Position numbers and translations under genes: made by a program. From an uncultured Bacilli bacterium (GTDB taxonomy: Bacteria; Bacillota_I; Bacilli_A; RF39; UBA660), in the NCBI GenBank assembly GCA_947629815.1, contig CANRFG010000005.1, forward strand, positions 1 to 59,482: a stretch of DNA of 59,482 nt, in the 5' to 3' direction. Positions within the stretch are counted from its first letter, which is position 1, and every line of letters starts with the position of its first letter. The notes beneath the pieces were generated by a model that made no database searches, was not told the origin of the DNA, and saw only the letters and a list, made by a program, of their open reading frames with translations. This document shows, piece by piece, positions 23,376-41,514 of this stretch.

Positions 23376-24984
23376 ATATGAAGAAAAGAAATATCGTAAA
23401 TATTTTATAAGTATTATATTTACAATATTATTTGCTTTGATAATATATTATTTTATGTTACCACCAATAAATTTAACATCATTTTCATTTTGGATTTATT
23501 TAATGTTAGTAGTTGGTTTTTATACTTTAGTTGCTAGCTGTTCAAATTTGAAAATAGAAAATAATATACTAGTAAGTAAAATACCAAGACAAAATGATAA
23601 ATTTAAGTATGTATGGTATTGTTTTATAGTTATTTTTTTAGCGATTATATTTGTTAATATTTTAAATTCTCCTATTTTCGCTTCAAAATCTTATTATAAT
23701 AGAATAACAGTAGATGAAACAGGTGTATTTGAAGAAGATATAAGTCTTGTAGATACTTCAAAGTTACCTTTACTTGATAAAGCATCAAGTTCAAAATTGG
23801 GAGATAGAGTAATGGGACAAATGCCTGATTTAGTATCTCAATATACAGTTTCAACACTATATACTCAAATAAATTATAATGATGAAATAACAAGGGTAAC
23901 CCCTCTTGAATATGCAAGTATAATAAAATACCTTACTAATCATAAAACAGGTGTTATAGGGTATATAAAAGTTAATTCAGTAAATGGAAAAACAGAATTA
24001 GTTAGATTAGAAAAAGGTATGAAATATATGCCATCTGCTATTTTAAATGAAGATTTATATCGTAAACTTAGATTTTCATATCCAACAGAAATATTTGGAG
24101 AAGCAAATTTTGAAATAGATAATGATGGAAATCCATATTGGGTAGTACCAACAATTAGATATACTGCTGTTGGTTTAAGAGAAGAGGTAAATGGAGTTGT
24201 TATACTAGACCCAATAACAGGTGAAAGTAAGAAATACTCTGTATCTGAAGTACCAAAATGGGTTGACCATGTATATTCACCAGATTTGATAATAGAACAA
24301 TTAGATGATTGGGGAACATATAAAAATGGATTTATAAATTCATTCTTTGGCCAAAAAGGAGTAGTAAATACAACAGAAGGATATAATTATACTGTAATGA
24401 ATGATGATGTATATTTATATACAGGAATTACTTCTGTTGCTAACGACGAATCAAATATAGGATTTGTATTAAGTAATTTAAGAACAAAAGAAACTGTATT
24501 TTATGCTGTTTCTGGAGCTGAAGAATTTTCTGCAATGGAAAGTGCTAAAGGTCAAGTTCAACAAATGAATTATGATGCAACTTTTCCATTACTTGTTAAT
24601 ATAAATAATAAACCTACTTATTTATTGTCATTAAAAGATAAAGCAGGCTTGGTAAAAATGTATGCTTTGGTAGATGTTGTCGATTATCAAAAAGTAGTTG
24701 TAACAGATTCTAGTGAAGGAATAGATAATGCAATTAAAAATTATTTAGGAAACACAGTTATTGGGGTAGAAAGTAAGACATCAACTATAACAATAAGCAA
24801 AATAAAAGAAGCTTCAATAGAAGGTAATACTTACTATTTTATAACAGATTCAAATAATAATAAGTATAGAATTTCTATTAAAGTAAATGAAAATATCTTA
24901 CCATTCTTAGAAATAGGTTCAAAAGTTAATATTACATATGTAGAAAATGCTAATATAAAAGAAATAACACAATTAAGCTACTAA
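23356..24984 (+). CDS. Membrane protein of unknown function (three N-terminal TM helices, large extracytoplasmic domain)
   Basis: 542-aa ORF overlapping uppS; hydrophobic N-terminus, beta-rich soluble domain. Confidence 0.7.
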   Translation: MRKKVIEYEEKKYRKYFISIIFTILFALIIYYFMLPPINLTSFSFWIYLMLVVGFYTLVASCSNLKIENNILVSKIPRQNDKFKYVWYCFIVIFLAIIFVNILNSPIFASKSYYNRITVDETGVFEEDISLVDTSKLPLLDKASSSKLGDRVMGQMPDLVSQYTVSTLYTQINYNDEITRVTPLEYASIIKYLTNHKTGVIGYIKVNSVNGKTELVRLEKGMKYMPSAILNEDLYRKLRFSYPTEIFGEANFEIDNDGNPYWVVPTIRYTAVGLREEVNGVVILDPITGESKKYSVSEVPKWVDHVYSPDLIIEQLDDWGTYKNGFINSFFGQKGVVNTTEGYNYTVMNDDVYLYTGITSVANDESNIGFVLSNLRTKETVFYAVSGAEEFSAMESAKGQVQQMNYDATFPLLVNINNKPTYLLSLKDKAGLVKMYALVDVVDYQKVVVTDSSEGIDNAIKNYLGNTVIGVESKTSTITISKIKEASIEGNTYYFITDSNNNKYRISIKVNENILPFLEIGSKVNITYVENANIKEITQLSY

Positions 24985-37125: not shown

Positions 37126-37659
37126 ATGAGAATCATAAGTGGAAAATACAAAGGAAAAAAAATAAATGGATTTGATATAGATGGAACAAGACCAACTATG
37201 GATAGAGTAAAAGAATCTTTATTTGCGATGATTCAAAACAATTTAAAAGATAGTATATGCTTAGATTTATTTGCAGGAACAGGTTCACTAGGAATAGAAG
37301 CACTAAGTTGTGGTGCGAAAGAATGTTATTTTGTTGATAATAATATAAAAGTTATAAAAATACTTGAAGAAAATACAAAAACAATAGAAAATTCAATTAT
37401 AATAAAAAATGACTTTGTGAATGCATTACAATATTTTTCTAAACAAAAAATAAAATTCGATATAATATTTTTAGACCCACCTTATAAATTAAACTTGATA
37501 AATCCATCAATAAAAATAATACTTGATAATAATTTACTAAAAGAAAATGGACTTATAATATGTGAATATGAAAGTGAAATCCTTAATATAGAAAACACCT
37601 TAAATATATACAAAGAAAGAAAATATGGAAGTAAAAAAATAGTTATTTTAAAAAAATAA
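37126..37659 (+). CDS. rsmD: 16S rRNA m2G966 methyltransferase
   Basis: MRIISGKYKG, TRPTMDRVKESLF, LDLFAGTGSLGIEALS, FLDPPY. Confidence 0.95.
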   Translation: MRIISGKYKGKKINGFDIDGTRPTMDRVKESLFAMIQNNLKDSICLDLFAGTGSLGIEALSCGAKECYFVDNNIKVIKILEENTKTIENSIIIKNDFVNALQYFSKQKIKFDIIFLDPPYKLNLINPSIKIILDNNLLKENGLIICEYESEILNIENTLNIYKERKYGSKKIVILKK

Positions 37660-37730
37660 TTATTTTTTTTTAAAAGTAAAAAGGAAAAAAATTAAACTTC
37701 TAGTATTTTATTTATAGGAGGTGAAAAAAT

Positions 37731-39800
37731 ATTAAAAAATATCCATTTATAAAACAAGATTCTAACAAAGATTGTGGTTGTGCATGTATAAGTATGATAA
37801 TAAATTATTATAAAGGTAATTTATCAATGGAAAGGATAAGAGAACTTACTAAAACAAATAAAAATGGCACAACTGCATATAACATTGTAGAAGCTTGTAA
37901 ACAAATAGGATTTTCTTCTAAAGGAATAAAAACAAAACTATCAAATATTACAAAAGAAAATATAGTTTTGCCTTGTATCGCACATGTTATAATAGATAAA
38001 AAATTTAAACACTTTATAGTCATATATAAAATAGATTTTAGTAAAAAGCAATTATTAATTGCAGACCCAATGAACAATATCAAAAAACTATCCTTCGCAG
38101 ATTTCGAAAAAATATTCGATGGTATTTTAATAATTCTTTATCCAATAAAAAAATTACCATTTGAGAAAAACATATCATTAACTGAGTTTATTATAAGTGT
38201 GATAAAAATGCATAGGACATTATTATTAAATATTGTAATTTTATCAGTTTTTGTAACTATGTTTTCTATAATTAGTTCATTTTATATAAAATATGTATTA
38301 GATGGATTAAGTAATGTTAATAATTTACTTTTAATATTTTTATTTTTCCTATTCATAAATTTATTTAAAATATTAAGTGATTTCTTTAGAAATAAAATAT
38401 TAATTTATTTAAATCAAAAAATTGATTTAAATCTTACAATAGAAACATTTAAGAAGATAATTTCACTTCCTTATAATTATTATCATTCAAGAACAACAGG
38501 AGATATAATATCAAGAATAAACGACTTGTCAAATGTAAGAAATATGGTAACAAAAGTATCATTATCTTTATTTATTGATTTACCCCTTGCTTTTATAACA
38601 TTTATAATATTTTGCTTTATAAATATAAAGCTATCTTTAATTTCTATAACTATAATAATATTATATCTATTAATAATAATGATATTTAAAAACACAATTA
38701 ACAATAACATTAATAATATTCAAATAAAAAAATCTGAAACAATGACAAATATGATAGAGTCAATAAGTAGTTTTGAAACAGTAAAAGGAATAAGTAATGA
38801 AGAAAAAATAAATACTACATTTGAAAATAAATATGTAAATTTACTAAAAAACACTTTCAAATTTGACAATATAAATAATATAATTTATATACTTAAAGAA
38901 CTCATTAATACTATTGGTTATTTAGTAATTATATTTATAGGTTCTAAAATGGTGATTTCAAATGAAATAACTATAGGAAGTTTGTTAGTATTTATCAATT
39001 TATCAAATTATTTCTTAGAGCCTATGAAAACAATAATAGATTTAAATTCAGAAATAAAAGAAGCAAAAAACTCACTAAAAAGAATTTTAGAAATATTTGT
39101 TGAAGAAAAAGAACTAGGATTTTTAGAAGACATTAAAGCAAATAATATAAATTTTAAAAACTTAAATTATTCGTATGATGACAAAAAATATGTATTAAAA
39201 AACATAAACTTAAAATTAACTAAAGGTAAGATACTAATATTAGGAGAAAGTGGTTCAGGAAAAAGTACATTATTTAAGCTTTTAATGAAATATTACGATG
39301 TACCTAAAAATAAAATTATAATCGATAATAATGATATTAATACATATAAAAAATCTGCTATAAAAAACAACATATCTTATATATCACAAAATGAAAATTT
39401 ATATACAGATTCAGTATTTAATAATTTAAAAATAAATAATAAAATAACAAACGAAGAAATAATAAAAATTTCTAAACTTTGTTATATAGATGAATTTTTA
39501 AATGAATTAGGATTAAATATGTTAATAGAAGAAAATGGTTATAATTTATCAGGAGGTCAAAGACAAAGAATAATTCTTGCTAGGGCACTTTTAAAAAAAT
39601 TTAAAATATTAATAATAGATGAAGGATTAAGTCAAATGGATATAAATCTAGAAAGAAAAATCTTAAAAAATATTTTTGATATTTATAAAAACAAAATGAT
39701 AATAGTTATTTCTCATAGATTAGATAATATGGACCTTTATGATAGAGTAATTGAACTTAAAAATGGACAAGTAATTAAGGATGTGTATAAAAATGGATAA
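37731..39800 (+). CDS. Peptidase C39-containing ABC exporter (PCAT) for double-glycine peptides; probable ATT start
   Basis: The in-frame extension upstream of ATG 37794 gives IKKYPFIKQDSNKDCGCAC (catalytic Q..DCG). HFIVIY and IADP complete the C39 triad. GESGSGKST, LSGGQRQR, IIDE, ISHR. RBS AGGAGGTG lies 7 nt before ATT 37731. Confidence 0.85.
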   Translation: MKKYPFIKQDSNKDCGCACISMIINYYKGNLSMERIRELTKTNKNGTTAYNIVEACKQIGFSSKGIKTKLSNITKENIVLPCIAHVIIDKKFKHFIVIYKIDFSKKQLLIADPMNNIKKLSFADFEKIFDGILIILYPIKKLPFEKNISLTEFIISVIKMHRTLLLNIVILSVFVTMFSIISSFYIKYVLDGLSNVNNLLLIFLFFLFINLFKILSDFFRNKILIYLNQKIDLNLTIETFKKIISLPYNYYHSRTTGDIISRINDLSNVRNMVTKVSLSLFIDLPLAFITFIIFCFINIKLSLISITIIILYLLIIMIFKNTINNNINNIQIKKSETMTNMIESISSFETVKGISNEEKINTTFENKYVNLLKNTFKFDNINNIIYILKELINTIGYLVIIFIGSKMVISNEITIGSLLVFINLSNYFLEPMKTIIDLNSEIKEAKNSLKRILEIFVEEKELGFLEDIKANNINFKNLNYSYDDKKYVLKNINLKLTKGKILILGESGSGKSTLFKLLMKYYDVPKNKIIIDNNDINTYKKSAIKNNISYISQNENLYTDSVFNNLKINNKITNEEIIKISKLCYIDEFLNELGLNMLIEENGYNLSGGQRQRIILARALLKKFKILIIDEGLSQMDINLERKILKNIFDIYKNKMIIVISHRLDNMDLYDRVIELKNGQVIKDVYKNG

Positions 39801-40233
39801 TATAGATATATATAATAATTCAAGTGTAATACTTTCAAGAAAAGTCCCTAAAAAAATAATAAGTTGGGTTACCATATTATGTTCATTTCTCATTTTCATA
39901 ATTATATTTGGAACTTTTATAAAATTTAGTAAATATGAAAATACAATAGGAATAGTAAATGGAAATACACTTACAGTTTTACTTGAACCAAACAAATTAA
40001 ATAACATTAAAAATAAATTATTTATAAAAAATAAACAATATGAATTTAAAGTAAAATCTATCAGTAAAGATTATGTAATATCTAATAATAAAAATTATTA
40101 TGAATTAATATTAGATTTGGATTTAGATGAAGAATATAAGATAAACAATAATATATTAGAAATAAGTATAGAATTAGAAAAAACAACACTATTAAAAGAA
40201 GCACTGAAATTTTTTAAGAAAGGAATGATTTGA
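39793..40233 (+). CDS. Short bitopic accessory secretion protein (truncated HlyD/ComB-like)
   Basis: Overlaps the PCAT stop; one N-terminal TM helix and a beta-rich C-terminus (KVKSISKD...YYEL). Confidence 0.6.
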   Translation: MDNIDIYNNSSVILSRKVPKKIISWVTILCSFLIFIIIFGTFIKFSKYENTIGIVNGNTLTVLLEPNKLNNIKNKLFIKNKQYEFKVKSISKDYVISNNKNYYELILDLDLDEEYKINNNILEISIELEKTTLLKEALKFFKKGMI

Positions 40234-40373
40234 TGCAAAATTTAAGTAAAGAAGAACTTATGAAAGTACAAGGAGGAGGTATTACATTAGGAACAGGTTT
40301 ACTAATAGGAGCAGGAATAGTATTTTTAATAGGAGTAATTGATGGTTATATAAGGCCATTAAGATGCAATTAG
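40233..40373 (+). CDS. Double-glycine leader peptide A (46 aa), class IIb bacteriocin-like
   Basis: MQNLSKEELMKVQGG|GITLGTGLLIGAGIVFLIGVIDGYIRPLRCN; RBS AAAGGA; TGATG coupling to the upstream gene. Confidence 0.9.
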   Translation: MQNLSKEELMKVQGGGITLGTGLLIGAGIVFLIGVIDGYIRPLRCN

Positions 40374-40382
40374 GAGGTGTAT

Positions 40383-40550
40383 ATGTTAGATTTAAATAAA
40401 AAACAATTATTAGAAATAGATGGTGGAAGTACAATATCAGGTGCTTTTATAACCTCTATTATTAAGGGAATAAGCTCTATATTTGATTTAGGTAAAGCCT
40501 TAGGGACTGCTATAAGAAGAATTGGAACTAAAACAATATGTCCGTTATAG
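40383..40550 (+). CDS. Double-glycine leader peptide B (55 aa), class IIb bacteriocin-like
   Basis: MLDLNKKQLLEIDGG|STISGAFITSIIKGISSIFDLGKALGTAIRRIGTKTICPL; RBS AGGAGGTG. Confidence 0.9.
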   Translation: MLDLNKKQLLEIDGGSTISGAFITSIIKGISSIFDLGKALGTAIRRIGTKTICPL

Positions 40551-40699
40551 TAAAAAATAAGAAGATAATACTAATAATATTTGGAATACTTACTTTACCT
40601 TTTACGATACCATTATTGCAAACAATAGGAAACATTATTTTTGAAGGTGGGAGATTAGTAGGTAATTTTATTAGGGCTTATTCTGGTATATGCATATAA
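40538..40699 (+). CDS. 53-aa hydrophobic peptide C lacking a GG leader; its C-terminal half resembles peptide B (candidate immunity/third component)
   Basis: MSVIVKNKKIILIIFGILTLPFTIPLLQTIGNIIFEGGRLVGNFIRAYSGICI; overlaps the end of peptide B by 13 nt; weak RBS. Confidence 0.65.
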   Translation: MSVIVKNKKIILIIFGILTLPFTIPLLQTIGNIIFEGGRLVGNFIRAYSGICI

Positions 40700-40778
40700 C
40701 AAGCTTTTAAGCTTGTTTTTATATTTATAGTTAATTTTATGTTTATATATAAAAATACATTGTTTTTTTAAATTTTGC

Positions 40779-40807
40779 TTGTAATATATAAAAACAAATG
40801 TTATAAT
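40779..40807 (+). promoter_or_regulatory. SigA promoter of rpsU
   Basis: TTGTAA-N17-TATAAT with TG extension. Confidence 0.7.
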
Positions 40808-40836
40808 ATTAGCGTCAGAGAAGGGAGGGATTATCA

Positions 40837-41031
40837 ATGTCTACAGTAGTTGTAAGAAATGGAAATGTTGATAGTGCATTGCGTACTATGAAACAAAAAA
40901 ATGCTAAAGATGGCCTCCTAAAACGCGTTAAAGAAAGAAGCGAAGGTTACATGAAACCTGGCGTAAAAAGAAGAAAAGCAAAAAAAGAAGGAATCAAAAA
41001 CAGTCGTAGGAGAGAAAGAATGTATAATTAG
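40837..41031 (+). CDS. rpsU: 30S ribosomal protein S21
   Basis: VVVRNGNVDSALR..K...Y.KPGVKRRK; upstream of yqeY. Confidence 0.9.
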   Translation: MSTVVVRNGNVDSALRTMKQKNAKDGLLKRVKERSEGYMKPGVKRRKAKKEGIKNSRRRERMYN

Positions 41032-41073
41032 AACCAACCTAGTAAGGTTCTTTTTTTCAAAGAAAGGTGAAAT

Positions 41074-41514
41074 ATGAAAGAAAAAATATTAATAGATTTA
41101 AAAAATGCAATGAAAAATCAAAATAAAGATTTATTAAATGTAATAAGAATGGTTAAAGGTTCTATCCAAATGGAAGAAATAAAAGTAAAGCATGAACTTA
41201 ATGATGACGAAGTAATTACAATTATTGCAAGAGAAATAAAAACAAGAAAGGAATCTATTAAAGAATTTGAAAAAGGAAATAGACAAGATTTAATAGATAA
41301 AACAGCAAAAGAAATAGAAATACTTAATAAATATATGCCAGAACAATTAAGTGAAGAAGAAGTAAAAAAAGAAATAGATAAAGTAGTAGATGAATTAAAA
41401 CCTACATCTATTTCTGATATGGGAAAAGTAATGGGAAAATTAACTTCAATCTTAAAAGGAAAAGCAGATTTAGGTTTAGTAAATTCTATAGTAAGAGAAA
41501 AATTAAATAAATAA
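41074..41514 (+). CDS. yqeY: GatB/YqeY domain protein
   Basis: DLKNAMK...K.RKESI.EF.KGNR.DL...YMPEQLSEEE...DMGKVMG..KGKAD. Confidence 0.92.
   Translation: MKEKILIDLKNAMKNQNKDLLNVIRMVKGSIQMEEIKVKHELNDDEVITIIAREIKTRKESIKEFEKGNRQDLIDKTAKEIEILNKYMPEQLSEEEVKKEIDKVVDELKPTSISDMGKVMGKLTSILKGKADLGLVNSIVREKLNK

Follow-up and report, generated by a model that had tools for sequence, protein, structure and literature searches.

A small open reading frame, ORF C, directly follows the genes of two double-glycine-leader peptides, A and B, in the 59,482-nt stretch of DNA analysed here, which we call the window. C is a real, conserved coding gene, and on sequence grounds its product is a paralogue of peptide B, predicted to be held in the producer membrane by a single helix. 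Among the functions considered for C, self-protection by subunit mimicry emerged from the sequence comparisons as the single most likely one, though it falls just short of what we would call probable. C would then be a candidate immunity protein that carries the contact module of a toxin subunit, which offers a concrete mechanism, namely competition for the partner peptide or for the receptor. It would also show a route by which a protective protein can arise, through duplication of a toxin subunit and replacement of the export leader by a membrane anchor.

C is the last of five genes on the same strand, preceded by those for an exporter, an accessory protein, A and B (Table 1). The exporter matched Peptidase_C39 (2.3e-26), ABC_membrane (2.7e-38) and ABC_tran (1.4e-27) in Pfam, each exceeding the curated cut-off. 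The ABC and accessory genes share 20 nt, and the stop codon of the latter runs into the ATG of A (TGATG). In the interval 37500-41100, the terminator-like site after C was the only one found, while shuffled sequences contained 0.3 on average; rpsU, the next gene after the operon, comes with a promoter-like site of its own. Within the operon, neither regulator nor inducer genes were seen. The accessory protein had no match in Pfam and a weak, sub-threshold match to MAG1140_fam in NCBIfam (19 bits, cut-off 35); in related loci, too, its gene lies ahead of A. It could be a minimal export partner or, in genomes without C, the real immunity factor.

Table 1 Features of the five-gene operon and of ORF C in the window.
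Feature	Position	Strand	Basis or remark
C39-ABC exporter gene (peptide cleavage/export)	37794..39800	+	Operon gene 1; Pfam domains
Accessory protein, 150 aa, single N-terminal hydrophobic segment	39781..40233	+	ORF list, sequence
Peptide A, double-glycine leader	40233..40373	+	TIGR03949; invariant columns in 75 sequences
Peptide B, double-glycine leader	40383..40550	+	Sequence; alignment of 9; consensus of 95
ORF C, 53 aa, ATG start, predicted membrane-anchored B paralogue	40538..40699	+	
B/C overlap, 13 nt	40538..40550	+	
C residues 1-9, Lys-rich; residues 10-35, hydrophobic, proline-containing predicted TM helix	40565..40642 (residues 10-35)	+	
C residues 31-53, B-like module IIF.GG..VG..IR.....C, homologous to B residues 30-53	40628..40696	+	hhalign
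Intrinsic-terminator-like hairpin (40698-40717) and T-run	40698..40727	+	Starts at C stop codon; operon end

The two hallmarks of a class IIb bacteriocin system, two adjacent genes for peptides with double-glycine leaders and a dedicated C39-ABC exporter, are both present. Peptide A passed TIGR03949 (class IIb bacteriocin, lactobin A/cerein 7B family) with 26.5 bits against a cut-off of 21.5 and scored 19.8 against Pfam Bacteriocin_IIc, under the cut-off of 27.1, while B matched no family in Pfam and NCBIfam. A tblastn search of plasmids with A gave no match. The GG of the leaders is invariant across the aligned A (75) and B (95) sequences, and the leaders of the two peptides aligned with each other at 96.3% in hhalign. 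In A the leader comprises residues 1-15, and the mature part is glycine-rich and hydrophobic, has seven invariant columns (75 sequences) and ends in the invariant module F.IGVIDG..RPL.C. The mature part of B is amphipathic with an invariant G-x3-G, an invariant R and a C-terminal Cys, so that A and B carry one invariant C-terminal Cys apiece. The B gene is preceded by AGGAGG, 5 nt upstream of its ATG (40372-40385).

In its adjacent GG-leader genes, GxxxG motifs and C39-ABC exporter, the locus resembles those of class IIb bacteriocins (TIGR03949; Abp118, carnobacteriocin XY and lactococcin G). It differs from them in the size of the accessory protein, which has 150 aa, whereas the HlyD-type partner gene of pMP118 has 1155 nt, as well as in the absence of regulatory genes and in the invariant C-terminal Cys of both A and B. 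It also differs in being a near-universal, syntenic hallmark of one family and not a strain-variable trait.

A first-pass annotation of the window had described a third ORF at this place, with a basic-then-hydrophobic N-terminus and no GG leader, and both the ORF and these features were found as described. The frame is intact in 3/3 genomes of the same genus (83, 67 and 60% identity) and also occurs in more distant genera. A search of 1.84 billion proteins with a 75-row C profile returned 245 representative clusters at E<=0.001, nearly all of 47-63 aa. G38 and G42 are invariant among 75 C sequences, and R46 is conserved in at least 90% of them. In the closest pair, the window and L003, dN was 0.111 and dS 1.055 (dN/dS ~0.11), similar to the dN and dS of A (0.092 and 0.848) and B (0.146 and 0.831) in the same pair. 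These values were calculated over 2775 pairs, in most of which dS is saturated near 1, and the closest pairs alone are informative. C evolves faster than its neighbours, with a median pairwise identity of 37% versus 48% for B and 58% for A. Conservation and dN/dS, which the annotation had named as checks, thus both bear C out as a gene. The missing convincing Shine-Dalgarno sequence upstream of C might suggest a chance, untranslated ORF, an explanation that conservation effectively refutes: a frame of conserved length (47-59 aa over 83 unique sequences) with invariant residues stays open in 83 divergent loci, dN is far below dS in the closest pairs, and the family extends over the 245 clusters.

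C matched no family in Pfam and NCBIfam, and no immunity family there. A word-based homologue search with C alone returned nothing, and the same search with the 75-row alignment returned 19 proteins, none with a Pfam domain; four of the 19 were named by their source, all as 'hypothetical protein'. The PDB profile search with C gave chance-level matches only (V-ATPase subunit K, E 1.6 and 5.9), and the top score in the ESM Atlas search was 0.80, under the informative range. Some longer representative matches (76-96 aa) were considered as B-C fusions and rejected, as they resemble mis-called starts or read-through instead. The window's own genome contains a second, weak C-like match (G000:C12:3322-3429, L002; E 0.0048, 39% identity over residues 5-42) with an internal TAA, which may be a decayed copy or a chance match. 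Second, shorter C-like frames, possibly extra or orphan copies, were also seen in a few family genomes, at G180:C37:19995-20147 and 23866-23991 (~3.7 kb apart) and, on another contig than the main locus, at G355:C9:380-499.

The start of C lies within the end of B in 83/83 loci, with an overlap of 13 nt in 47, 7 nt in 18 and other values in the remaining 18; the start codon is ATG in 74 loci and GTG in 9. In every one of the 83, this codon is made of the base before the codon for the invariant Cys of B and the first two bases of that codon, which in the window are the last base of an Ile codon followed by TG. This arrangement suggests translational coupling of the two genes. No strong Shine-Dalgarno sequence was found upstream of C in the window, where a weak GGAA-like stretch lies inside the B coding sequence (40522-40540); C is therefore probably translated by re-initiation after B. 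In many loci, a Gly codon of B that is semi-conserved and stands three codons ahead of the Cys provides a GG at the right distance from the start of C.

The likeness of B and C is weak and marginal in the single pair and clear at the family level. BLASTP gave no alignment of the two peptides of the window, and their Smith-Waterman score was 40 versus 23.4 +/- 4.5 for 5000 shuffles (z 3.67, p 0.004), in an alignment colinear over nearly the whole length, from 'NKK' on the N-terminal side to the C-terminal module; A versus C, as a control, gave z -0.73. With profiles of 9 sequences, hhalign aligned B 30-53 with C 31-53 at a probability of 92.6% (E 4.5e-7), while the A versus C control reached 0.6%. 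Enlarging the profiles to 95 B and 83 C sequences raised the probability to 96.4% (E 1.1e-9), with a score of 44.4 over 56 colinear columns, against 15.9 for reversed C and 8.7 for A versus C. Column-shuffled C alignments scored at most 16.4 in 262 of 263 cases; the lone remaining shuffle had a nominal score of 129.6 over a 7-column alignment of 14% identity and was regarded as a numerical artefact. HMM searches matched in both directions, from C to 96 B frames (mostly at model positions 24-55) and from B to 21 C frames, and whole-genome searches with the C profile also picked up the adjoining B genes, at times along the whole model. The paralogy with peptide B proposed in the first-pass annotation is upheld by these comparisons, and the likeness stood out from shuffled controls, which had been named there as a check, for the single pair as well as for the profiles.

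B and C have the same median length (54 aa), align colinearly along their whole length and share a C-terminal module, G-x3-G-[ST]-x-hydrophobic-R, in which both Gly are 100% conserved and a Cys follows 8 residues after the R (R-x7-C). GxxxG is the accepted helix-helix contact motif of two-peptide bacteriocins, as given in PMC2850506. A Cys occupies the aligned C-terminal column in 95/95 B sequences and in 80% of the 83 C sequences. The Cys of C is not universal, as 66/83 have one within the last 6 residues and 4/83 have none at all. The N-terminal parts differ: B has a 15-residue double-glycine leader followed by an amphipathic helix, whereas the first 35 residues of C form a basic N-terminus and a predicted TM helix. 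The double-glycine leader, the export criterion of the peptide-B family, is absent from the C consensus. By parsimony we infer the direction of descent, with C as a later, lineage-restricted derivative of B. Pairs of B and C from the same locus were no more alike than pairs from different loci (z -2.0 to -1.3), and this lack of excess likeness gives no sign of co-adaptation to a common partner or of gene conversion.

The membrane tether that had been proposed for C agrees with the predictions. AF2, run with the 75-row alignment, modelled C as one continuous helix of residues 8-52 (mean pLDDT 83.4). The median length of the hydrophobic span is 25 residues, and two columns in it hold a semi-conserved proline, present in 67% and 69%. 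The mean net charge is +2.9 in the N-terminal flank and +1.3 in the tail, and the N-flank is the more positive one in 77% of the 83 sequences, a bias from which an N-in/C-out topology is predicted. In this topology the B-like module would lie on the outer face of the producer membrane. The N-terminus of C, a positive n-region with a hydrophobic one behind it, could also be read as a cleavable Sec signal, from which a 25-aa B-like peptide would be secreted as a third bacteriocin component. We consider this very improbable, since the span has the length of an anchor and not of a signal h-region, no small-x-small cleavage motif is conserved in the consensus, and the AF2 helix is continuous.

The position of C, where the first-pass annotation had expected an immunity gene, finds a parallel in small single-TMD immunity genes, which in PMC6957408 are placed right after the two structural genes. 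The CbnZ protein described there has 42 aa and one TMD with experimentally determined N-in/C-out topology, and its expression led to a 250-fold increase in resistance; BrcI (53 aa), EnkIaz (52 aa) and AbpIM (55 aa) are further proteins of this type in the same source. Like these CbnZ-type proteins (PMC6957408), C is encoded directly downstream of both structural genes in the same operon and has ~50 aa, with one hydrophobic helix in N-in/C-out orientation by prediction. It differs from them in having no detectable family relation, as judged with one comparator, the 55-aa ORF of pMP118 from Ligilactobacillus salivarius UCC118. This ORF lies directly after two genes named 'Blp family class II bacteriocin' and is itself followed by the AbpIP gene; we take it to be AbpIM from its size and position, while the record names it 'ABC transporter permease'. 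The C HMM did not match it, and the single-pair Smith-Waterman comparison reached only z 3.1 (p 0.013). The ORF showed no similarity to its own Abp118 alpha and beta peptides (z -0.3 and 0.0), while alpha versus beta gave z 10. Such loci therefore do not in general conceal a paralogy between a small immunity candidate and its toxin subunit. The annotation had known of no class II immunity protein that is a paralogue of its toxin, and neither the Abp118 comparator nor the literature contradicted this: no report of an immunity protein related to its own bacteriocin was found in the limited literature collection searched, and subunit mimicry is undescribed there as an immunity mechanism of class II bacteriocins.

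The parallel with CbnZ in position, size and predicted topology would equally suit an immunity protein that blocks the receptor or the pore from within the membrane, as other single-TMD ones may, with the likeness to B left over as a vestige of its origin. In passages of section 3.2.2 of the review PMC8538875, how such proteins act is called unknown and the word 'mimic' is absent; the missing same-locus co-variation of B and C is also compatible with a vestige. The invariant columns of C are nevertheless exactly those of B (G, G, [ST], R and Cys), whereas a mere vestige would be expected to decay, and we regard this explanation as quite unlikely.

The same invariant columns suggest that B and C have the same partner, which leads to the explanation that we prefer, self-protection by subunit mimicry. 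Here, a duplicate of B would have given rise to C, in which the C-terminal module was retained, while the cleavable leader and the amphipathic N-terminal half were replaced by a Lys-rich cytoplasmic N-terminus and one proline-containing TM helix. The B-like module would thus be displayed at the outer face of the producer membrane, where it most likely competes with secreted B for the partner of the B module. The candidates for this partner are the target receptor and the invariant module at the C-terminus of A (GVIDG..RPL.C), the latter perhaps joined through a Cys-Cys link as well. On the producer, A and B would then be kept from assembling into active complexes. As a Cys is found near the C-terminus in A, B and most C sequences, a disulfide between A and B and a competing one between A and C are conceivable. 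The residues that the mimicry model singles out are G38, G42, R46 and the C-terminal Cys. The complex prediction for mature A with C gave 0.02 versus a mark of 0.32, which is no evidence either way. In its most specific form, C would be an immunity protein born from its own toxin, in which an anchored beta-type copy captures the alpha-type peptide A through the GxxxG/Arg/Cys module, perhaps with a mixed disulfide, in a near-universal, family-specific peptide system of an uncultured gut lineage with reduced genomes. We put this form forward tentatively, as possible on the sequences and open to considerable doubt.

The retained contact module and the synthesis of C in step with B, as expected from the overlapping start, would also fit a third, cell-bound subunit. 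Its B-like module would draw A and/or B to the surface of the producer, for instance to assemble or retain them there or to deliver them on contact, and would give no protection. Such a subunit might be dispensable, as C is in many A+B lineages, in the manner of an optional add-on. Against it, C matches known immunity genes in position and size, and no precedent for an anchored third subunit in a two-peptide system was found in the limited literature collection; we judge it rather unlikely.

The loci were found in uncultured gut MAGs of ~1 Mb named 'Bacilli', 'Tenericutes' or 'Mollicutes', e.g. Candidatus Pelethosoma, which we take to be the RF39 group. No literature on the locus in RF39 or Mollicutes was found in the limited collection. 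Peptide A was detected at E<=1e-4 in 375/401 sampled genomes of the family, in 287/299 high-quality genomes and in 211/214 genera. At E<=1e-9 it was present in 27/34 family genomes versus 1/266 genomes of 28 other families of the class. The A locus usually lies at the same place across genera, with rpsU and a yqeY-like gene as neighbours. A distribution that makes A nearly a family marker is very unusual for a bacteriocin-type peptide. Since the operon is present in almost every genome of a large, uncultured family of gut Bacilli with ~1-Mb genomes, its function is probably central to their lifestyle.

The 75-row C profile matched 129/401 family genomes at E<=1e-5, so that C is recognisable in about a third, and in at least 7 of these 129 the listed match is merely partial and to the B peptide. 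Around A, in 67 unique loci of the nearest relatives, C was present in 56 (52 by HMM and 4 divergent ones by inspection) and absent from 11. Twenty family genomes with strong A and no C match had B beside A in 20/20; a divergent C-like ORF overlapped the end of B in 5 of them, and none was seen in the other 15, one of which is cut by the contig end. Whole-genome searches with the C profile in five C-less genomes yielded, in 5/5, only the B peptide or a spurious hydrophobic frame, and no C elsewhere. Because A occurs in 375/401 genomes but C in about a third, C cannot be a general self-protection factor. Moreover, a near-universal, syntenic and family-specific A, unlike strain-variable bacteriocins, raises doubt whether immunity is the right frame. 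The reading of C as a decoy that confers immunity is plausible but sits uneasily with the distribution data.

The distribution of A favours another explanation, in which A and B are a vertically inherited exported pair with a physiological role at the surface, in the membrane or in signalling of these gut bacteria with reduced genomes, and C is a version of B kept in the membrane, which in part of the family modulates or docks the system. The constancy of the rpsU and yqeY-like neighbours across genera and an operon without regulator or inducer genes point the same way, and the seven invariant columns of A fit purifying selection better than an arms race. On the other hand, the components are all of bacteriocin type, with GG leaders, a C39-ABC exporter and a peptide A that passes TIGR03949, and the sequence names no alternative function; for bacteria with a dependent lifestyle, a conserved lytic pair could itself belong to the core traits. 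We consider the physiological role unlikely, though the likeliest of the rivals to self-protection by mimicry.

The spacing of A and B varied in some loci. In one genus, a 227-aa SAM-dependent methyltransferase-like ORF is inserted between the two genes (L010 608-1291, identical to L028 626-1309), and gaps of 508-1782 nt separate A and B in four further loci.
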